64,000 bases of DNA from a candidate division CPR2 bacterium GW2011_GWC2_39_35. Lineage in GTDB: Bacteria; Patescibacteriota; CPR2. Below are positions 14,790-60,884 of this stretch, piece after piece. The stretch spans positions 153,284 to 217,283 of the forward strand of contig LBWX01000003.1 in NCBI GenBank assembly GCA_000995065.1, in the 5' to 3' direction. How positions within the stretch are numbered: the first letter of the stretch is position 1; the number at the start of each line of letters is the position of its first letter. The notes beneath the pieces were generated by a model, which made no database searches, was not told the DNA's origin, and worked only from the letters and a program-made list of their open reading frames with translations. Made by a program: the position numbers and the translations under genes.

Positions 14790-14846
14790 GAGGGTGGAGA
14801 ACTTAAATCCCCGAATTTCAGGGCTCCGTTTCACTTCGCTCGAAGA
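14790..14846. repeat. dispersed intergenic repeat family (tattgttcgac ... gtggagaact ... cgtttcacttcgctcg), copy 1; related copies at 53120-53190 and partial at 23177-23193
   Basis: 16-mer cgtttcacttcgctcg present three times in window; copies 1 and 3 share additional upstream blocks. Confidence 0.6.
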
Positions 14847-14956
14847 GTAATTATGGGTCATTAATACCAAGTGCGAAATGCGTGATTAAAAGATCTAATA
14901 ACAGTCTTCATTCTAGTATTTTGCTTTTTTATCCACAACGATTATCCACAGAAAAA

Positions 14957-19635: not shown

Positions 19636-19748
19636 TTACACCCTCCTTAAACTAAACGCTTGTCTGAAATAAGTATATCACTTCCCAAAAAAGCTTCAAT
19701 TAAAAAATTACCCGATTTGCTTTTACCAAGGTAATTTTGATATAAAAA

Positions 19749-20714
19749 TTACTCCTTTTCTTTTTTGTTCGATTTCGGTTTTTGAATCATTCCCATAAGC
19801 CAAGCAAAACTAACCAAAATAAGACTAGGCCCTCCGGCATAAATACTATTATTAATGATGGCCTTTTTCATATTCTTGGGGTCAATCAGCTTCTTCTCTG
19901 ATGTATTTGAAGAAAGATAAACTTCCGCCGCAACACTTCTTTTATCTCCACTTACTGCATAAAGTTGATGTCTTCCCTGCTCTAAATCCACATCAGCTTC
20001 CCAAACACCATTTTCACCCGACTGTATTTCTTTTTTTACGGGACTAGAAAAAACAAGAACTTTAAGATCGGTACTTGCTTTGGCCGTGCCTCTTACTTCA
20101 ACTTTAAATTTATTATCCTCAATTTGTCCAACCTCTAGTTCATTTACCCTTAAATCCTTATCGACTTCTATTTTTTCCAATTCTTCTTTTGCACTAGTAT
20201 TCTCTTCTTTTGTTAAAGCCTTGTCCTTATCAACTTTTTTCTTAGCGGTTAAAGAGGCCGAAGATTTAAGGGTGCCGTCATTGTCCTCGCTCCTTGCTTT
20301 TTTATTTTTAACTTCAAGTTCGATGGCAGTCTTTGAAGGCGCGCCGGTTTGGTAATAAGCCGTGACATACAGATTGTAGACGCCGTCGTCGTATTCAATT
20401 GTATCCCATTCAAATTCCCCAAGTCCATTTGCTATCCGAACTTCTCCCTCAGAAATAGCATCTCCATTTTCATTTTTGCCGGATAGATACAAGGCTTTGG
20501 CTCCTGGGGCTGCAACAGTAATTTTTTTCTCTCCAAAAACTTCTTCCCCCGCCTTAGGTGAAATGATTTGAGGCAAGGGGTAAACGATAAAATTTTGGTC
20601 TTTGCTCTTGGGGTTATTAACTTGATCTTGAAATTTATTTATCCCAAAAAAAGCGCCATATGCGGCTGAAAAAGCAACAATTAAAATAGAAAGAATGATT
20701 TTGAGGACCTTCAT
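19749..20714 (-). CDS. hypothetical exported protein with N-terminal signal/TM and C-terminal membrane anchor
   Basis: 321 aa; hydrophobic N-terminus, Lys/Glu-rich coiled middle, C-terminal GGPSLILVSFAWLMGMI helix followed by basic tail. Confidence 0.5.
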   Translation of the reverse strand: MKVLKIILSILIVAFSAAYGAFFGINKFQDQVNNPKSKDQNFIVYPLPQIISPKAGEEVFGEKKITVAAPGAKALYLSGKNENGDAISEGEVRIANGLGEFEWDTIEYDDGVYNLYVTAYYQTGAPSKTAIELEVKNKKARSEDNDGTLKSSASLTAKKKVDKDKALTKEENTSAKEELEKIEVDKDLRVNELEVGQIEDNKFKVEVRGTAKASTDLKVLVFSSPVKKEIQSGENGVWEADVDLEQGRHQLYAVSGDKRSVAAEVYLSSNTSEKKLIDPKNMKKAIINNSIYAGGPSLILVSFAWLMGMIQKPKSNKKEKE

Positions 20715-20717
20715 TTT

Positions 20718-21125
20718 TTATTTCTTCTCCATCTTCGGCGCGAACAGAACATATTCCCCATTATTAGCATTTGTAACTTCTACAACATAATAAGAACTAT
20801 CGGAAGGGTCTGTCGGAAAATCTTCCGTTGGCAAATAGCTGCTTGGAAAATTTGAGCTAGAGTCTTTTCCGTAAAAAACACCTGAATTGCCCTCTGCCTG
20901 TCCTTTAGTTAAACTACGACGACCATTCACAAATTTCCCATGCCTCGACTTATAAGTTTCAATGACGTTTTTTATCTTATCCAAATCGTCACTTCTCACT
21001 TTATTACGAGTATCAACCGCCACACCATTAAGCCTTATAGCAATGAGGGCAATAAAGAAAACACCAACTACCGTAACGAGCATTATTTTTGCAATTAAAT
21101 TATCTTTAGATAACTTCTGAAACAT
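20718..21125 (-). CDS. hypothetical protein with N-terminal transmembrane helix
   Basis: 135 aa; IMLVTVVGVFFIALIAI helix near N-terminus. Confidence 0.45.
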   Translation of the reverse strand: MFQKLSKDNLIAKIMLVTVVGVFFIALIAIRLNGVAVDTRNKVRSDDLDKIKNVIETYKSRHGKFVNGRRSLTKGQAEGNSGVFYGKDSSSNFPSSYLPTEDFPTDPSDSSYYVVEVTNANNGEYVLFAPKMEKK

Positions 21126-21211
21126 TTCTTCTCCTTAATTTTGAATTCTTTTCTTATTATAGAACATAAGTAAAAAAAGTATAACCCCTCAAATAATGTG
21201 GGTAATTATTA

Positions 21212-21251
21212 AATGACGGTTTTTATACGATCGTTTAATTTTCGTCATTTA
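21212..21251. promoter_or_regulatory. conserved 40-bp palindromic motif (copy 1)
   Basis: aatgacggtttttatacgatcgtttaattttcgtcatttaa. Confidence 0.5.
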
Positions 21252-21438
21252 AGAGATCGTTTTGTTGGTTTTTGGTGATTAAATGCGGGAAAACTATAGC
21301 CTCGAAAACTCTTTACAAATTTCCATTTTTCTGTTAAATTATTAGAGTTGAAAATAGGAAATAGAAGGTAGAAAACAGGAAATAATTAAGAATCAGCCTT
21401 CTATTTATTAGTCACTATTTCCTATTTACTTGACTTAT

Positions 21439-21515
21439 GGCCCCGTCGTCTAGTGGCCTAGGATATCAGGTTTTCATCCTGAAGATCGCGGGTTCGAATC
21501 CCGCCGGGGCTGCCA
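21439..21515 (+). tRNA. tRNA-Glu (anticodon TTC)
   Basis: 77 nt including CCA; acceptor stem GGCCCCG/CGGGGCT (one G-U), anticodon stem TCAGG/CCTGA with loop TTTTCAT, T-arm GCGGGTTCGAATCCCGC. Confidence 0.85.
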
Positions 21516-21558
21516 ATAGAAAAATCAAAGATTTTTACTGATAGCTTATAGCTATTAT

Positions 21559-21590
21559 CAAAATGGCTTTTTTAAAAAGCCATTTTGATT
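21559..21590. terminator. rho-independent terminator after tRNA-Glu (caaaatggcttttttaaaaagccattttg)
   Basis: 13-bp inverted repeat with A/T tracts on both sides (bidirectional). Confidence 0.55.
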
Positions 21591-22413: not shown

Positions 22414-23094
22414 TTAATTATTCTCCTCCCACTTTATAAGCCGGCCGTCTTCTATGTAGGCGATTCGGTTAGCAATAGATTTTATGCGGTCGTCATGACT
22501 TACGACAATAATACTTTTGCCATGATCCAAGGCAACAGAACTTAATAAGTCCATAACCTCCCTACCCGTCTTTTTATCCAAATTGGCTGTCGGTTCATCG
22601 GCTAAGATTACCGTGGGGTCGTTCATCAAGGCTCTGGCAATTGCTATTCTTTGTCTCTCTCCGCCTGATAAATCATTAATATCGGCGTTAAGTCTCTTTT
22701 CTAGACCTAATGCAATAAGTAGTTCCGTCGCTTTTTTCTTTTTGTCCCTCACTCCAAATCCGGCTATCATCACGTTTTCTACGGCTGATAAATTAGAAAG
22801 CAAATTAAAAGATTGGAAAATAAAACCGATGTTTTTTCTTCTAAACTTAGTTAGATATTTAGGACTTATCTTTTGCATCTCTTTACCCAGAAACAATAAA
22901 TTACCGGACGATGGCGTTAAAAGCCCGCCAAGCATGGTAAGAAAAGTGGTTTTACCGCTTCCGGATGGTCCCATTATCATAAGCAGCTCCCCTTCTTTAA
23001 GGGAAAAATCGATGCCCTGAACTGCCCGCACTTCGATTGGCTTGCCGGCGTCAAATACTTTGGTCAAATTTTTGGTTTCTATAATTGTTTTCAT
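22414..23094 (-). CDS. ABC transporter ATP-binding protein (FtsE/LolD/MacB-type)
   Basis: 226 aa; Walker A GPSGSGKT, signature LSGGERQR, Walker B ILADEPT. Confidence 0.85.
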   Translation of the reverse strand: MKTIIETKNLTKVFDAGKPIEVRAVQGIDFSLKEGELLMIMGPSGSGKTTFLTMLGGLLTPSSGNLLFLGKEMQKISPKYLTKFRRKNIGFIFQSFNLLSNLSAVENVMIAGFGVRDKKKKATELLIALGLEKRLNADINDLSGGERQRIAIARALMNDPTVILADEPTANLDKKTGREVMDLLSSVALDHGKSIIVVSHDDRIKSIANRIAYIEDGRLIKWEENN

Positions 23095-23122: not shown

Positions 23123-23176
23123 GTTTTAGTTCTCGACTTCGTTTTAGTTCTCGACTTCGTTTTAGTTCTCGACTTC
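23123..23176. repeat. tandem repeat: 3 perfect copies of 18-bp unit gttttagttctcgacttc, followed by a degenerate fourth copy gtttcacttcgctcgaac
   Basis: read directly in the 152-bp spacer between ABC permease and ATPase genes. Confidence 0.8.
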
Positions 23177-23246
23177 GTTTCACTTCGCTCGAACAGTATT
23201 TCCTATCGACCCATTGACCCATTAACCGATTCGCCAATTTGCCTAT

Positions 23247-45094: not shown

Positions 45095-45187
45095 TTTTTT
45101 CGTCATTCCCGTGAAAACGGGAATCCGGGAAAGCTTGGGAAGGAATGGGGCATCTGGATTCCCACCTCCGCGGGAATGACGAAAAAG
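45095..45187. repeat. compound palindromic REP/MITE-like element (outer 17-nt perfect inverted arms tttttcgtcattcccg / cgggaatgacgaaaaa with internal hairpins)
   Basis: direct reading; core gtcattcccg / cgggaatgac shared with second copy at 60923-60983. Confidence 0.65.
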
Positions 45188-49844: not shown

Positions 49845-52052
49845 TTATTTAGATGCTTTTCGATATGCATTTATATTCTGAGAGTTCTGGCTTTTTTCGA
49901 TGCCGGTTTCCCAGGGAATAAAGAATCCAAAGGTACAACCTTTTCCTGGCTTACTATCAAAATAGATATTACCTTTATGGCCCTCTATAACTTCTTTTGC
50001 CAAAAAGAGACCAAGACCACTGCCATCCGGCCTTATTTGTTGGGCATTTGATCCCCTAAAGAATTTTTTAAATATATCTTTTTGTTGATCTCCCGGCACT
50101 CCAATTCCCGTGTCTTTAACAAGCACAATCATTCCCTTATCATCTTTGTCCACAACAACAGTAATCCCGCCATCTCTTGTATAAAAAATAGCATTTTCAA
50201 TAAAATTAGAGATTACCTGACCCATCTTTAACTTATCAATCATCATCTTCTTTCTCTTTCCAGTCAAAACTTCTAGTTTCAAGAATAACTGCCTCGACTC
50301 TGCCCTTTCCCTCAAATGAGCCACTTCCTCAGCCGCAATTTCCGCAATATCAATAAGTTCTCCCTGCATAAAGAATTTACCCGTATCAATCCTAGAAATA
50401 TTCAAAAGATCATCAATAAGCCTCTCCATTCGGGAGGTATTTAAATAAGCCTCCTGCATAGCATTGAGCTGTGTTACCGTCAGATCGCCGAAGTCTCCCT
50501 CCACAAGCATATGAAGATAACCCGCAATAGTGGTAAGCGGCGTTCTAAGCTGATGAGATGCCATTGCCAAAAACTGATCCTTTGCCTTATCCAATTCCTT
50601 TAAATGTTCATTAGCCCTTAAAAGTTTGGCCGTTGATTTTTCGACTTTTTCTTCTAGAGTACAGGCAAAATTTTTTATTTCTTCATATTGACAAGCATTC
50701 TGAATAGCCACGGTCAGCTGATTGGATAAAATATGTAATACTTTAATGTCCTCCGGGCTGTAACTTTCTCCGGATTTCTTATGCCCAATTAACATCACTC
50801 CGGCTAAATAAGATTTTGTTTTTAAAACAAAGCTTATCCCGCTGTCATATTTCTTAAGAAGCGCTTTTCTGGGATCTGAATCGGCTAACTCGTATTCATC
50901 AAGAAGCATCTTTGTCTTAAGCATGTCAAATTCTTTAGGTGTTAGTTTTATTAGCTTTCCGAATCCAACTGCGTAAGTATCTTTTAAGTTACCTTGCTCG
51001 TCGGCAATAGCAAATAAGATACGAGAAGTTTTGATGGTAATCTCAAGCGCTCTAAATACCTTGAACAAAATTTCATGAAGTATTATTGTTGAGCTTATTT
51101 CTTCGCCGATTTCATTTAGAAATTCTTCTGACCGATATTGATTTTTGAAGAAGAACTTGTCCGTAATCTTGGCAATGAAGATTTTTATTGGCTGAAAAGA
51201 AAAAATTAGAACTAATACCACGGCAATGCGAAAAATCTGATGCCCGATGCTCACCTCTTCGCCAAAGACCAAAACATTTGCGGCATATATAAAAGCGGTA
51301 TATGCAATTGCAAGAGTCATAACAAGAAGAAAGAAAGCAAATGACTTGACAAAAATTACCTTAATGTCTATCAGACGATGCTTTACAATAGCATATGCGG
51401 TAAAGCTCAAGAAAATGAGCGCTGAGTAATTGCCGATTGCCCAGAATTGGGGAATTCCCTGAAAAAAGGGCAAAATGACGTTAAAAATAAGATTTGCCAA
51501 AACCCACACGAAGAAACCAAATAGAAAATAAACGAGCTTAGCTCTTGCATTAGCTTTAGATTTAAAATAATTTACCAAAAAACGATAGGCAATATATAGA
51601 AACCAAAAAAATATCAATGAGAAATAAGCATATGCGCCCTTCCCCAAAACAGGAATAGCTCCATACTGCGTTACCGCCATGTTTTTTACCATGAAATTGC
51701 CGGAAATAGAAATAGTAAATAAAAAAAGGCTCGAAAATATTAAAAAGAAATCCATTTTAATATTTTTCTTGTATTCCTGTAAAAAAGAAGTAGAAAAAAA
51801 ATAGAAGGGGATAAAGAAAAGAGCGACAACACCATATGCAATTCTACCCCAAAGCGGATCCGTAGTAATAAAAATAGAATTTCCTAAATAACATGCAAGG
51901 ATCCACAAGAACAAAAAAAGCGAGGTCCAGAAAAAAAATACGTTCACCTTGAGTCTCGAGTTCGAGGAAAGAACCCAAAAACCGAGCCCCAAACAAAGTA
52001 TTCCAACTACGATTGTCAATATTGCGTTAATCAAAAAAAATGTTTCTGCCAT
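49845..52052 (-). CDS. sensor histidine kinase with N-terminal multi-TM (7TMR-type) sensor, GAF-like linker, HisKA and HATPase_c domains
   Basis: 735 aa; ~8 TM; H-box MASHQLRTPLTTI; G-boxes DTGIGVP.. GSGLGL. Confidence 0.8.
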   Translation of the reverse strand: MAETFFLINAILTIVVGILCLGLGFWVLSSNSRLKVNVFFFWTSLFLFLWILACYLGNSIFITTDPLWGRIAYGVVALFFIPFYFFSTSFLQEYKKNIKMDFFLIFSSLFLFTISISGNFMVKNMAVTQYGAIPVLGKGAYAYFSLIFFWFLYIAYRFLVNYFKSKANARAKLVYFLFGFFVWVLANLIFNVILPFFQGIPQFWAIGNYSALIFLSFTAYAIVKHRLIDIKVIFVKSFAFFLLVMTLAIAYTAFIYAANVLVFGEEVSIGHQIFRIAVVLVLIFSFQPIKIFIAKITDKFFFKNQYRSEEFLNEIGEEISSTIILHEILFKVFRALEITIKTSRILFAIADEQGNLKDTYAVGFGKLIKLTPKEFDMLKTKMLLDEYELADSDPRKALLKKYDSGISFVLKTKSYLAGVMLIGHKKSGESYSPEDIKVLHILSNQLTVAIQNACQYEEIKNFACTLEEKVEKSTAKLLRANEHLKELDKAKDQFLAMASHQLRTPLTTIAGYLHMLVEGDFGDLTVTQLNAMQEAYLNTSRMERLIDDLLNISRIDTGKFFMQGELIDIAEIAAEEVAHLRERAESRQLFLKLEVLTGKRKKMMIDKLKMGQVISNFIENAIFYTRDGGITVVVDKDDKGMIVLVKDTGIGVPGDQQKDIFKKFFRGSNAQQIRPDGSGLGLFLAKEVIEGHKGNIYFDSKPGKGCTFGFFIPWETGIEKSQNSQNINAYRKASK

Positions 52053-53119: not shown

Positions 53120-53190
53120 TACATATTGTTCGACCTTGTGGAGAACTGCATTAAAGTACTTCTAGACCACGTTTCACTTCGCTCGCCATA
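53120..53190. repeat. dispersed intergenic repeat family, copy 3
   Basis: atattgttcgaccttgtggagaactgcattaaag...cgtttcacttcgctcg. Confidence 0.6.
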
Positions 53191-53390
53191 CCATCCGTAT
53201 GGGAAGAAAAAAGCAACTGCTCAACCCCATCGTCATTGCGAGGAGTTCATACGACGAAGCAATCTCGCTCCAGTTCCAGACAAAGATCGCCACGCTCATT
53301 TCATTCGCTGAGGGTGACAGTTGTGAGCAGTTACGAATAAAATAGGTAGTTTAGGTGTCAAATGCGAAAGTCGCGTTCAGTAGTATTGGA

Positions 53391-54957: not shown

Positions 54958-57135
54958 CTACGGTGTCGTAACCAGCATTCTTTTCTTTGGATCTGCCTTT
55001 ATTATAGATTTTATCGGAATTCTAAAGCCAAAAACCGAACCCTTGGAACTAGACCTAAAGATTATCTCGCCGCCATGATCTTCCACTACCCTTTTAGCCA
55101 AATAAAGGCCAAGGCCATTACCATCCGGACGCAAGCGCCTGGCGTTATCCGCCCTGTAGAATTTAGAGAACAATTTATTTTGCACTTCTTTTGGAACACC
55201 AATGCCGGTATCAATTACCTCAAAGACAAATTCGTGTTTATTGGCCGCGGCTCTTACAGTCACTCCGCCCTTTTCTGTATAATAAATCGCATTATCAATA
55301 AAGTTCATTATGACCTGACGAATCTTATTCTCATCGGCCTGAACGGTTGACATCTTTTTAGGGCACTCAAACTTAAGCCACAAGTTTTTGGTTCTAGCCT
55401 GATGCGCTAATTGTTTAACTTCATCAGCAATCATAACTTTCATATCAAGATCCTTGGGATCGATAAAGAATTTGCCCGTACTCATTCTGGACACATTTAG
55501 AAGATCATTAATTAAAGTCACCATCTTATTAGCGCCCTGAAATGCCTCATTTATAAAGTCAAACTGGCCAACCTTGATTTCTCCCGCATCCCCTTCTAAA
55601 AGCATGGATAAATAACCCTTAATAGCTGTAAGCGGAGTGCGCAGCTGATGAGATGCCATGGAGATAAACTCATCTTTTGCCTTGTCAAGTTCTTGCAGAT
55701 GGTCGTTAGCTTCGCGAAGTTTTTTGGTCTGACGCAAAACCTCCGCCTTCAAGGTGATGTTAAACTTCTGGATTTCCTCATACTGCTTGGCCCGCTGCAT
55801 CGCCATGGTAATTTCCGGCTCCACAATCTCTAAAATCTGGATATCTTTTGCCGCATACATATCCCCCGACTTTTTTTCACCCAAGAACAAAATGCCGGCA
55901 AATTGGTGATCCTCCATAAGCCTAACGGCTACCGAAGTCTCATATCTTCTTAAAATAGATTTGAGCCTGCTTCCTTCTTCTAATTCGTCATATACTGCAA
56001 TTGGAAAGCGGCTTAGATATTTAATGTCGCCGTATTCAACTTCCGGCGCTTTTTTGTAACCGATAGACTGAACAGAATGAATATGCCCTTCCTCTACTAC
56101 TACAAACATGCCTTCTAATATTTTAAATTGCTGCAAAATATGATCTAAGCTTTTATAAAGAAGCTCGGTTAAGACGATATTGGTACTTAAGATATGGTTA
56201 GTTTCCCTAAGAAAAGCATCCGGATCATACTGCTCTTTAAAGAAAATTTTATCCGTAACTTTGGTAAGAAATCTCCGTAATGGCTGAAAGGTAAAGGCCA
56301 TTACCATGGCAAGAATGATTTGGATGATTGTATGCGTCATAGAATAACCCTGCTCCGGAAAAAACAATCTCTGAACTGCAAAAATCGTAGTAGCATAACC
56401 CCCGGCAAGAATGATGACAAGCAGCGTATATGCCAAAGATTTGGCAACCACCATCCGAATGTCCATAAGACGATGTTTAACAATGGCGTAGGCTATGCCA
56501 CCAATCATAAAAACAAAACCATAAATCCCTAAACGATTAACTGTTTCATTAACTATCAACAGCCTAGGTATGATTAGGTTAGTTGAAATTGCAATTGTCG
56601 CAGATAAAGATAACCCCATTGTTATATAAAGTAATTGCGACCTAGCCACTCCTCGAGAAGAAGACAATTTTTTAATAAGAATAGTGATTCCCACAAGAGA
56701 TAAGGCAATTAACATGACAGAATAAATAATAAATAAAGGACCCTCTTGAAAATCTATGCCCATATCTTTAGAAAAATGTACGCTCTCAATAATGTACGAT
56801 GAATAAGCTAATCCAGAAAAAACAATTGAAGCTATTAACGATACTATCCAAAGAGTATTCTTTATCTTACTCTCAGACTGAAAAACCAAGCAGAAAGAAA
56901 AAAAGGTAAACGATGTGATTAGACCAAATGCAAAATCTGTCCTTACAAGATAACTAACTAAAGCAACATTCAATGTCTCGCTTTCAAAAAAAATAACCAA
57001 TGACCAAATAGATAACGCTAGTGTAAGCAAGAAGAAGATAAGGTTGGAGGGTTTTTTTGAATTTCTAGAAAAAACCAGGAGACCAAGAAACAAATTTAGA
57101 GAGACCGCTATAATTAAAAGCGCATAACTAATCAT
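54958..57135 (-). CDS. sensor histidine kinase, paralogue of 49845-52052 (multi-TM sensor + GAF-like + HisKA + HATPase_c)
   Basis: H-box MASHQLRTPLTAI; same architecture; start set at MISYALL (ORF-track start 57171 overlaps upstream gene). Confidence 0.8.
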   Translation of the reverse strand: MISYALLIIAVSLNLFLGLLVFSRNSKKPSNLIFFLLTLALSIWSLVIFFESETLNVALVSYLVRTDFAFGLITSFTFFSFCLVFQSESKIKNTLWIVSLIASIVFSGLAYSSYIIESVHFSKDMGIDFQEGPLFIIYSVMLIALSLVGITILIKKLSSSRGVARSQLLYITMGLSLSATIAISTNLIIPRLLIVNETVNRLGIYGFVFMIGGIAYAIVKHRLMDIRMVVAKSLAYTLLVIILAGGYATTIFAVQRLFFPEQGYSMTHTIIQIILAMVMAFTFQPLRRFLTKVTDKIFFKEQYDPDAFLRETNHILSTNIVLTELLYKSLDHILQQFKILEGMFVVVEEGHIHSVQSIGYKKAPEVEYGDIKYLSRFPIAVYDELEEGSRLKSILRRYETSVAVRLMEDHQFAGILFLGEKKSGDMYAAKDIQILEIVEPEITMAMQRAKQYEEIQKFNITLKAEVLRQTKKLREANDHLQELDKAKDEFISMASHQLRTPLTAIKGYLSMLLEGDAGEIKVGQFDFINEAFQGANKMVTLINDLLNVSRMSTGKFFIDPKDLDMKVMIADEVKQLAHQARTKNLWLKFECPKKMSTVQADENKIRQVIMNFIDNAIYYTEKGGVTVRAAANKHEFVFEVIDTGIGVPKEVQNKLFSKFYRADNARRLRPDGNGLGLYLAKRVVEDHGGEIIFRSSSKGSVFGFRIPIKSIIKADPKKRMLVTTP

Positions 57136-57721
57136 AAACAATTCCTCGTCTCCAATTTTTAACATAAACATTCTGAATTTGGTTTTGCTTATCAGGAAAT
57201 TTTGAATTACTAATTATATCGATAGCCTTTTTTTCAACACCTTTATATTTTAACTGTAATACATTTATTAATTCATTGCCAACAAAACCTTTTCCTTTAC
57301 TCTGATGATAGAAATTTAAATAACTATAATCTAATAGCCCTAGCCTTAAAAAGTACCACACAGATATGAGCAAAGAACAAGGAATATGACCCTCTTTATT
57401 ACTAATATAACTTAAGTAACTTCTTTTTGCTTTACCTTCGTTTATTAATTCAAAAAAAGGCTCTTTAAGCTTAACTAGCTCGGACTCAAATAGTACAAAA
57501 TCTGGCATAACGTTTGAATGCTCGAGATTGGATAAGTACTTATCTATGTTTAATTTCTGCCTTGTCGGATTATAATCATCAATTAAAAGTGCTAGACTAT
57601 AAGACAAACCTTTTTCGCCAATACTTATGGTTATGTCCTTAACTGCCGGGATCATACCATGAGAACGAATATTTTTTTCATCAATATAAATATGAGCAAA
57701 CTCAATGCTAAAACTTTCCAA
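57128..57721 (-). CDS. hypothetical protein
   Basis: 197 aa ORF, no recognisable motif. Confidence 0.4.
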   Translation of the reverse strand: MESFSIEFAHIYIDEKNIRSHGMIPAVKDITISIGEKGLSYSLALLIDDYNPTRQKLNIDKYLSNLEHSNVMPDFVLFESELVKLKEPFFELINEGKAKRSYLSYISNKEGHIPCSLLISVWYFLRLGLLDYSYLNFYHQSKGKGFVGNELINVLQLKYKGVEKKAIDIISNSKFPDKQNQIQNVYVKNWRRGIVYD

Positions 57722-58894: not shown

Positions 58895-58930
58895 AAATAA
58901 ATCTGGTTACTTTCATTATTTTTTTATTTA

Positions 58931-58995
58931 TACTCATGCCCAATCTCCCTCGCTATCTCTGACCACTAGCAAATCACGCACTATTTCTTCCATCA
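58931..58995. repeat. ~65-bp direct repeat copy A (degenerate duplicate of the 3' end of plsC); partner at 60280-60345
   Basis: tactcatgcccaatctc + cgctatctc + gcactatttcttc blocks shared with 60280-60345. Confidence 0.6.
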
Positions 58996-59209
58996 TTTAC
59001 TATTTATCCCATTATACCCTACTTACTCTAAATAATTAAATACAAATCCTTTTGCTAAATATTCTTAAAAAAAGGGGCAGTTCTCTCTTTAAATATTAAT
59101 CTCCTATTTTATTAATAACCAATCGCCTACCCACACAAATAACAAAAATAGCCTCCAAAATCCTGCAACATTTGACACCTCCCGAATCTCGCCAATCAAT
59201 TATTTTAGG

Positions 59210-59249
59210 ATGACGGATTTTCTACGATCGTGGTAATTACGTCATTTAA
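59210..59249. promoter_or_regulatory. conserved 40-bp palindromic motif TGACGG-N-TACGATCGT-N-CGTCATTTAA (second copy at 21212-21251)
   Basis: two near-identical occurrences in intergenic DNA, internal ACGATCGT palindrome flanked by TGACG/CGTCA inverted arms. Confidence 0.5.
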
Positions 59250-59424
59250 CAAGGCGCTCGCTTTATGAATTTTATCCTAATAACCGCTAAACTTTTTCTT
59301 GACGTTCCAATAGTTTAGGATTACAAGTTTAAAAACATATGTAATTATCGTAATATAATGACACGCCCATCTTTAAGAAGAGAAAAGCTATTTTGATAAG
59401 CAATGACTAACTAAAGGAGCTAAT

Positions 59425-59835
59425 ATGAAATTTGCGGTTGCTACAAAAGCTGTTATCTTAAATCCAAAAGGAGAAGTTTTAATACTAGTAAAGAGCAATA
59501 AAGATGAAATTAACCCGAAAACTGCCGATATCCCTGGAGGACGTCTAAAATTCAGCGAAAAAATTGAAGATTGCTTAAAAAGGGAAATTGAGGAAGAAAC
59601 TAGTATAAAAGAGATCAATATCATAGCACCTTCCAAAACATGGAGCCTAATAAAAGATGATATGCATCTTGTAGGAATCACGTTTGCTGTAACTACTAAT
59701 ACCTATGAAGTTAAGACAAGCTTTGAACATGAAAGCTTTTCTTGGCTATCGCCAGAAGAAATTTTAGAAAGCAATCTTTCGGATTGGATAAAAGAAGAAG
59801 TGAGGGCAGCATTAAAAATAGCCAGCCAAAACTAA
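59425..59835 (+). CDS. Nudix hydrolase
   Basis: 136 aa; Nudix box GGRLKFSEKIEDCLKREIEEETS. Confidence 0.75.
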   Translation: MKFAVATKAVILNPKGEVLILVKSNKDEINPKTADIPGGRLKFSEKIEDCLKREIEEETSIKEINIIAPSKTWSLIKDDMHLVGITFAVTTNTYEVKTSFEHESFSWLSPEEILESNLSDWIKEEVRAALKIASQN

Positions 59836-59879
59836 AAAACGGCCCCAAAGCCGCTTTACTACCTTAATCTTTCTTAAGC

Positions 59880-60155
59880 TTATGCCATCTCCGGCATTTG
59901 AATGAATTTCCTAATTTTTTTTATCTCTAGACCTTGTTCATCTTGCCGTTCAATAACAGCATTTAGTTTTCTTTCTATTCTATCATTGCTCATTTCTAAA
60001 TTCTCAACCCTTTTTTCTAACCCACCCATACTATGCTCTAATTTATCCATTCTGTTCTCTAACCCGTCCATCTTATCTTCCAAACGAACAATATGCGGCA
60101 AGACAACTTGCTCGAAACCTTCGTTAAATAAATTAATCATCTCTTTCTTATCCAT
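59880..60155 (-). CDS. small coiled-coil protein with repeated LE..M(D/E)KLE heptads
   Basis: 91 aa; LEDKMDGLENRMDKLEHSMGGLEKRVENLEMSNDRIERKL. Confidence 0.45.
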   Translation of the reverse strand: MDKKEMINLFNEGFEQVVLPHIVRLEDKMDGLENRMDKLEHSMGGLEKRVENLEMSNDRIERKLNAVIERQDEQGLEIKKIRKFIQMPEMA

Positions 60156-60263
60156 AAAAATAATATACCTTCTGTTAGGACCTAAGTCAACAAAAAATTA
60201 GCCGATCTAAAGAAATGTACACACCCGGTGTGTACAGCCTAGACACAAAAGCAATTACTAAGG

Positions 60264-60884
60264 CTAAGTTTTGTGCTCGTACTCATGCCCAATCTCACGC
60301 GCTATCTCAGGCATTAAGATGTCGTGCACTATTTCTTCGGGTGTTTTGTCAGCAATTTCTTTATAGGAAATCGGTTCCAAGAATTTAACCCTACAAATCC
60401 GCTTTATTCTGGGAAACTTATGATGCCTTCCAAAAACGTGATGCGAATTTTCTATAGCTACAGGCAAAATATCTACCTGATTTTGCAGAGCCATTCTAGC
60501 CACGCCCCTATATGCCTTAAGCGGTTTTCCATCGTAGCTCCTGGTTCCTTCCGGGAAAAGAACTAAGATATGGCCTCTTCCTAAAACATCAGCCGCTGCC
60601 TGATAAACCATCTTCTTATCTTTACTAAAACGATCCACCTTTATTTGTCCGGTTATACGCATAATAAACCTAAAGAAAGGGTTTCTATAGATCCAGTCTG
60701 CCGCCAAAAAGAAAAGTCTTCTTCTAACCGCCGCACCAAGAAATGCAAAATCCAAATAACTCGCGTGATTAGCTGCAATTATAATCGGCCCCTTTCTGGG
60801 AATATTATGCTTTCCCTCAACCCTTTCTATCCAAAAAAGTTTAATCAGGGGGCTTAAAAGAATTTTTAGAACTCGATACAGCAT
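60264..60884 (-). CDS. plsC: 1-acyl-sn-glycerol-3-phosphate acyltransferase
   Basis: 206 aa; NHASYLD (HX4D) and FPEGTRS motifs. Confidence 0.8.
   Translation of the reverse strand: MLYRVLKILLSPLIKLFWIERVEGKHNIPRKGPIIIAANHASYLDFAFLGAAVRRRLFFLAADWIYRNPFFRFIMRITGQIKVDRFSKDKKMVYQAAADVLGRGHILVLFPEGTRSYDGKPLKAYRGVARMALQNQVDILPVAIENSHHVFGRHHKFPRIKRICRVKFLEPISYKEIADKTPEEIVHDILMPEIAREIGHEYEHKT

Follow-up and report, generated by a model that had tools for sequence, protein, structure and literature searches.

PaaX-family transcription factors pair a winged-helix DNA-binding domain with a Cas2-like dimerisation domain, and in Escherichia coli the phenylacetate catabolon has PaaX operators at its Pa, Pz and Px promoters. 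On the actinobacterial plasmid pAL1 the regulator MeqR2 reportedly binds a TGACG-containing palindrome, in work by Niewerth et al. (J Bacteriol, 2013). Other palindromic elements are found in REP/RAYT systems, which have tens to hundreds of imperfect hairpins per genome, a conserved 5' tetranucleotide and a RAYT gene, while NrdR boxes are two 16-bp palindromes with the consensus acaCwAtATaTwGtgt. The E. coli PaaX operator is TGATTC(N27)GAATCA (PMC9493321), and PaaX-related regulators govern quinaldine catabolism on pAL1 (PMC3534580). The E. coli sequence was also read directly in the paaZ-paaA region of strain K-12. For the Candidate Phyla Radiation (CPR, Patescibacteria), whose members cannot be grown alone, almost nothing is known about transcriptional regulation, and the literature yielded nothing useful on the motif string described here or on CPR in combination with PaaX.

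The DNA analysed, referred to as the window, is a 64,000-nucleotide stretch (GC ~0.38) of a Rifle groundwater genome belonging to CPR2, or Candidatus Howlettbacteria. It contains two exact matches to the pattern ATGACG-N8-ACGATCGT-N8-CGTCAT, in which 20 bases are specified. Site 1 (21213-21248) reads ATGACG GTTTTTAT ACGATCGT TTAATTTT CGTCAT, with its central palindrome, an inverted pair of ACG half-sites, at 21227-21234, and is embedded in a longer palindrome from 21210 to 21251 (TAAATGACG...CGTCATTTA). Site 2 (59210-59245) reads ATGACG GATTTTCT ACGATCGT GGTAATTA CGTCAT and has its centre at 59224-59231. The pattern did not occur in 100 dinucleotide-preserving shuffles, there is no third copy in the window when up to 3 mismatches are tolerated, and no further copy lies in the 10 kb past either window end, giving a total of two in 84 kb. 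The central octamer ACGATCGT is restricted to these two places in the window, in which four one-mismatch half-sites were also counted and the heptamer AATGACG occurs 17 times, well above the expected 5.8. Two copies of a palindromic motif had been recognised in the initial annotation, and the exact matches confirm them; the strings quoted there have 41 nt and begin at 21212 and 59209, which puts its positions off by one. Its inverted arms also stand, as ATGACG/CGTCAT rather than TGACGG/CGTCA, the extra G of TGACGG being unmirrored.

At both sites the outer arms form 6-bp inverted repeats separated by a 24-bp spacer, and each inner ACG of ACGATCGT lies 11 bp from the ACG of an outer arm, as read from the sequence. 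The 8-nt spacers are T-rich on the plus strand and pair at 3/8 and 4/8 positions only; as they are not complementary, the element is a three-block palindrome and not a hairpin. In direct orientation the copies share 83% identity over 40 nt (repeat family D8), and they show no similarity outside those 40 nt. Within them the spacers have diverged (6/8 and 3/8 positions identical) whereas all 20 constrained positions are intact, and this combination looks like selection on the motif rather than recent duplication. Such block-wise conservation, with arms and centre invariant and the spacers variable and unpaired, is what would be expected of protein contacts on duplex DNA.

No intergenic gap in the window is larger than the two in which the sites lie (534 and 530 nt). 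Both gaps are flanked by divergently oriented genes, and the gene context is as first described. Site 1 begins 88 nt upstream of the ATG of a minus-strand gene for a GspG-like pseudopilin (20718-21125, 135 aa, weak match to TIGR01710), the first gene of an operon with 19749-20714; on its other side, 190 nt downstream, is a plus-strand tRNA-Glu(UUC) gene identified with Rfam (21439-21515). Site 2 lies between a minus-strand gene for a 390-aa membrane/acetyltransferase-like protein and a plus-strand Nudix hydrolase gene (59425-59835, PF00293), whose ATG is 180 nt past the end of the site. For site 2 the candidate target is the Nudix gene; for site 1 it is the pseudopilin operon, tRNA-Glu or both. 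A 13-nt inverted repeat (21352-21364 and 21415-21427) is found directly upstream of tRNA-Glu, and just 3' of this gene a perfect hairpin with a 16-bp stem between A and T runs (21557-21589) is probably a bidirectional terminator.

Compared with the E. coli PaaX operator, the window sites share a design in which the centres of the 6-bp inverted repeats are spaced by about three helical turns (33 bp in E. coli, 30 bp in the window), a T-tract follows the left arm, and a short palindrome occupies the centre (TTAATTAA in E. coli Pa, ACGATCGT in the window). A PaaX-family winged-helix protein is common to both, bound to the operator in E. coli and associated with the motif by gene adjacency at other loci. 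The two differ in half-site (TGATTC against ATGACG) and arm spacing (27 against 24 nt), in the invariant, G+C-containing centre of the window motif, and in the window context, which is not an aromatic catabolic cluster. The different half-site points to a different specificity subgroup and does not argue against the family-level design. Closer in both geometry and centre are the anthranilate/quinaldine-type PaaX sites of actinobacterial plasmids (pAL1, Rhodococcus plasmids), with the form ATGTCG-N8-ACGATCGT-N8-(CGACAT) and a position in a divergent promoter region beside the regulator gene. Unlike the window sites these have ATGTCG arms, the right one degenerate, and the genes they control are catabolic genes for CoA-thioesters.

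Matches elsewhere were collected by scanning public genome and metagenome collections with the bare DNA pattern, which gave 22 + 13 stretches representing ~20 independent loci, many of them high-GC. In five low-GC, CPR-like loci (L015, L019, L025, L028 and L029) the match is a perfect palindrome of 36-46 bp, with spacers that vary between loci yet stay complementary (fold z -7 to -8). That of L025 lies upstream of tandem MazG genes and that of L028 about 110 nt upstream of a ribonucleotide reductase gene, while those of L019, which adjoins IMP dehydrogenase, and L029 lie between convergent genes; L028 and L029 each have a separate canonical terminator beside the palindrome. These loci carry little weight as evidence, since a half-pattern match suffices to select a perfect palindrome and long perfect hairpins are common in CPR DNA (stem of 16 bp or more, roughly one for every 57 kb examined).

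The informative locus comes from the phylum of the window itself. In Candidatus Howlettbacteria (L024/L027/L033), five CGATCG-centred sites of the same geometry occur within 1.2 kb, in non-coding, strain-variable DNA around the gene for a 175-aa protein that has a PaaX_M (Cas2-like) domain behind a winged-helix-like N-terminus. Unlike E. coli PaaX and the full-length regulators of the actinobacterial plasmids, this short form has no PaaX_C effector domain. An example of a PaaX-like protein from Howlettbacteria is PIP30803.1. The site at L024 position 4216 matches all 20 specified bases and also has the asymmetry of the window sites, with ATGACGGTTTT on one side. One site overlaps the likely -35 of the PaaX-like gene, a Ham1 gene also lies downstream of a site, the arms co-vary, and the sites closest to the PaaX_M gene carry different arms, TGAGCA/TGAACA. 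A C/A-rich tract adjoins the site in both the window and L024, and was rejected as part of the element because, relative to the site asymmetry, it points one way in the window and the other way in L024. Around the cluster the 5' end and upstream region of a ThiF-family gene recur in several copies (L024 2849-2996 and 4046-4137; L033 1239-1380 and 5916-6018), and the contigs with this locus tend to stop just downstream of it, which suggests that its surroundings are a repeat-rich, strain-variable island.

When the L024 protein was searched with tblastn against the loci collected, matches were obtained in L034 and L020 (Segeticoccus), both high-GC and both brought into the analysis through the DNA pattern alone. 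Each encodes a full-length PaaX+PaaX_M+PaaX_C protein with the site within about 450 nt of its gene, and the arms in both are identical to those in the window. In L034, where all 20 specified bases match, the motif comes 14 nt beyond the PaaX gene, and a gene for an MFS transporter begins about 90 nt downstream of it; in L020 the gene about 60 nt downstream of the motif encodes RidA and is convergent with that for PaaX. A PaaX-family gene thus lies within 1 kb of the motif in 3 of the ~20 pattern-selected loci (L024, L034 and L020), and the PaaX profile gave no additional match in any other collected locus, including the window, L025, L028, L015 and L019. PaaX genes occur at most about once per genome, so that by our estimate, which is not a computed statistic, this frequency is far beyond chance.

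The association also holds in the reverse direction. A tblastn search of a plasmid collection with the L034 PaaX protein returned 68 records, of which twelve actinobacterial plasmid PaaX loci were sampled. The pattern ATGWCG-N8-ACGATCGT-N8-CGWCAT was present with no more than 4 mismatches in 20 at 4 of these 12 loci, against 1 of 204 shuffled loci. All four sites, including that of pAL1 of Arthrobacter sp. Rue61a, are in the RidA/fumarylacetoacetate-hydrolase (FAH) divergent promoter region beside the PaaX gene, a position that matches that in L020. The pAL1 sites lie at around 19743-19778 and 22597-22632 of NC_009453.1. Variants on pAL1 in which TGACG and CGTCA directly abut (ATGACGGTCGTCAT and TGACGCACGTCA) suggest that the recognised unit is the (TG)ACG half-site, and the centre of the window sites, ACG-AT-CGT, may accordingly be read as an inner pair of the same half-sites.

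No PaaX-like gene is found in the window and the 10 kb on each side of it (84 kb), and no other transcription factor gene is evident from Pfam matches to the unassigned window open reading frames; the Howlettbacteria relative at L024 does encode a PaaX_M protein. Viral contigs gave neither a match to the motif nor a relative of the CPR PaaX-like protein.

The surroundings of site 2 differ from those in related genomes. In the relatives L042 and L043, where the orthologue of the 390-aa gene shows 64% and 47% amino-acid identity respectively, the acyltransferase gene lies immediately upstream of that orthologue, whereas in the window 1.3 kb lies between them. This lineage-specific insertion (58960-60268), which holds site 2 together with the Nudix gene and a DUF7310 gene, lies near the acyltransferase 3' end and is flanked by a direct repeat of roughly 70 nt (58921-58990 and 60269-60338, family D9). 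The copy at 58921-58990, at the insertion edge, is a frameshifted minus-strand relic of the end of the acyltransferase gene, covering its last ~24 codons (EEIVRDLLV / EIAREIGHEYK*). As the insertion is absent from the relatives and is flanked by the repeat, site 2 came in with the inserted DNA; the arrangement looks like a site-specific integration that restored its target gene, but no integrase is present. A repeated hairpin, GTACACACCCGGTGTGTAC, at 60217-60235 of the window is common to different CPR2 genomes: it occurs five times in 20 kb of L047 (at about 6854, 9711, 10423, 18533 and 20303) and in L024 (2786-2832), and its positions are the ends of genes and the L024/L047 strain breakpoint.

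It had been proposed that an operator should recur elsewhere and be conserved upstream of orthologous genes. The motif does occur elsewhere, as described above; it is missing in the equivalent regions of L042-L045, which hold the closest relatives of the flanking genes, and in the DNA upstream of the Nudix homologues in L047-L051 (54-58% identity). For site 2 this lack of conservation upstream of orthologues follows from its location in lineage-inserted DNA. Across the region no strain of this species differs from the others, and the relatives lack the motif, so that classical footprinting supports neither side.

Several known classes of element were considered for the two sites. Against Rfam 15 at the gathering score, the window gives tRNA-Glu alone and five related loci give tRNAs alone. 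Scans found no terminator-like site at either locus and no promoter-like site above shuffle expectation, and inspection by eye found nothing consistent with sigma-54 -24/-12 elements or a short leader peptide. The site centres lie roughly at -80 to -117 from plausible promoters, the promoter calls, made by scans and by eye, being weak and ambiguous. An intrinsic (bidirectional) terminator was rejected, as there is no terminator-like site and both sites lie between gene starts rather than ends. CGATCG and GATC occur at expected frequencies, so the motif is not an artefact of restriction-site avoidance. A parS/ParB centromere site was rejected because the sequence is unlike the 16-bp TGTTNCACGTGAAACA and the window has no ParB homologue; among the motif loci a ParB-like neighbour is found at L015 and possibly L019 only. 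Control by NrdR or LexA was considered because of the ribonucleotide reductase context of L028; the span between outer elements (30-32 bp) is also similar to that of NrdR boxes. Both were rejected on sequence, the motif having no resemblance to the NrdR consensus, and no NrdR gene (zinc ribbon plus ATP-cone) is present among the window open reading frames examined.

Among the alternatives to a PaaX-type operator, we regard as unlikely a hairpin or cruciform palindromic element, REP-like or tied to mobile DNA, that spreads with or marks variable DNA. A nuclease or transposase would recognise its conserved CGATCG loop and stem base in single-stranded DNA or RNA, or the whole would serve as a structural element or terminator. 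The perfect palindromes of the five low-GC loci, two of them between convergent genes, suit such an element, as do the co-varying arms of L024, the arrival of site 2 in an insertion, and the place of the L024 cluster in a strain-variable region full of gene fragments on contigs that tend to end nearby. REP elements are likewise extragenic, hairpin-capable palindromes, but the motif has no GTAG-type 5' tetranucleotide and a very low copy number, with only two copies in 84 kb, and no RAYT, transposase or HUH-nuclease gene was seen, the window open reading frames examined including none that is RAYT- or transposase-like. The window copies are moreover poor hairpins with unpaired spacers: folded as RNA, they have a base stem that is separated by an 8x8 internal loop from a short apical stem, at -12.6 kcal/mol (z about -3) on the plus strand and -9.9 and -4.8 kcal/mol on the minus strand, where copy 2 has a z of only -0.6. 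Some of the perfect-palindrome matches may themselves be chance picks, given how frequent such hairpins are, separate terminators stand beside the palindromes of L028 and L029, and the association with PaaX genes is left unexplained. The initial annotation also suggested a small structured RNA, taken here as a plus-strand cis-regulatory or small RNA in which a U-rich internal loop would separate a base stem from an apical stem capped by a GAUC loop. Both copies share orientation and lie 180-190 nt upstream of a plus-strand gene, and G.U pairs improve the plus-strand fold. However, that fold is only modestly better than those of shuffled sequences, no Rfam family matches, no promoter-like site lies upstream and no terminator downstream of either copy, and the internal loop is not conserved; perfect DNA palindromes elsewhere do without G.U pairs, which argues for a constraint on duplex DNA, and the high-GC relatives lie in promoter regions beside a regulator gene. 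The suggestion thus found no support, and we consider an RNA highly improbable.

An operator for some other CPR DNA-binding protein, for example a regulator of the nucleotide pool, to which PaaX adjacency elsewhere would be unrelated, also seems improbable. It would fit the sites upstream of Nudix (window), tandem MazG (L025), Ham1 (L024) and ribonucleotide reductase (L028) genes and the one adjoining IMP dehydrogenase (L019), and the lack of a PaaX-like gene in the window, L025, L028, L015 and L019. On the other hand, no alternative regulator gene is consistently adjacent, ParB and Replic_Relax neighbours being seen once each, the PaaX-adjacent L034 site and L024 site 4216 match the window motif at all 20 specified bases, and the nucleotide-metabolism theme comes from few loci, some of which may be chance palindromes. 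Very unlikely, in our view, are non-functional leftovers of duplication or of horizontally acquired DNA, that is, orphan sites in a genome without the regulator. Site 2 did come with inserted DNA, no regulator gene is nearby and the sites are not conserved in relatives, all of which such leftovers would explain, but they would hardly keep 20 of 20 constrained positions intact in both copies while the spacers diverged.

We therefore hold, with moderate confidence, that the two sites are operators of a PaaX-family (PaaX-like) transcription factor or repressor, and operators of this type are the most likely explanation, ahead of an RNA element or a repeat that arose by chance. The initial annotation's proposal of an operator bound by a dimeric regulator is thereby retained and sharpened, through gene adjacency, to a PaaX-type one, with binding as a prediction from sequence. 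A dimer, or a dimer of dimers, would contact the outer arms, ATGACG and CGTCAT, through its winged-helix domains; as the arm centres are 30 bp apart, about three helical turns, both arms would lie on the same side of the DNA. The central ACGATCGT would supply the inner inverted ACG half-sites, so that the protein might contact the duplex at four ACG elements on one helix face. Occupancy would be expected to block or modulate the adjacent divergent promoters, and one regulator, presumably encoded elsewhere in the genome, might thereby control the Nudix gene through site 2 and the pseudopilin operon, tRNA-Glu or both through site 1. Several observations count against such an operator: the 84 kb contain no PaaX-like gene and no other evident transcription factor; the sites seem to lie far upstream, unlike the classical promoter-overlapping placement of repressors, with uncertain promoter calls; the half-site and arm spacing differ from those of E. 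coli PaaX, and in L024 the arms closest to the PaaX_M gene are different; several other CPR matches are perfect palindromes between convergent genes, a better fit to a hairpin element; and the nearest relatives lack the motif upstream of the orthologous or homologous genes.

An operator tied to a defined regulator family amounts to a concrete hypothesis for work in vitro, with one protein and one 36-bp probe, and the motif provides a search pattern for regulon reconstruction across CPR genomes. The occurrence of PaaX-type geometry and of the same centre in distant phyla helps to show how a poorly characterised repressor family, for which no PaaX-DNA complex structure is available (PMC9493321), reads DNA. 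More speculatively, and with considerable doubt, the short PaaX-like CPR proteins, which have the winged helix and Cas2-like domain without the effector domain, may form an undescribed regulon, with the operator ATGACG-N8-ACGATCGT-N8-CGTCAT kept from Actinobacteria to CPR and controlling genes of nucleotide-pool sanitation and supply (Nudix, MazG, Ham1, ribonucleotide reductase) and possibly DNA-uptake pilus genes.

Some further features were noted during the analysis. At one locus in ten mycobacterial species (Mycobacterium, Mycolicibacterium; L001, L003, L004, L007, L009, L011, L013, L014, L016 and L017) the sequence TGACGCTCATCACACGATCGTGCCTGCCCCGTCA is conserved, with a thioesterase-like open reading frame on one side and one with a RecG-wedge-like match on the other; this is perhaps another such operator in a distal position, or else no more than coding sequence. 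The window encodes two paralogous HisKA_7TM histidine kinases (49845-52052 and 54958-57171, repeat family D2) 5 kb apart, and no response regulator gene was found among the window open reading frames examined. A compound palindrome with inner hairpins (TTTTTCGTCATTCCCG...CGGGAATGACGAAAAA) occupies 45096-45186 in a 306-nt gap, and its outer ends share AATGACGAAAA words with the motif arms. Finally, a 36-nt direct repeat with the core CGTTTCACTTCGCTCG is present in three intergenic copies (14817-14852, 23166-23201 and 53160-53195, family D1) and could be another regulatory or repeat element.
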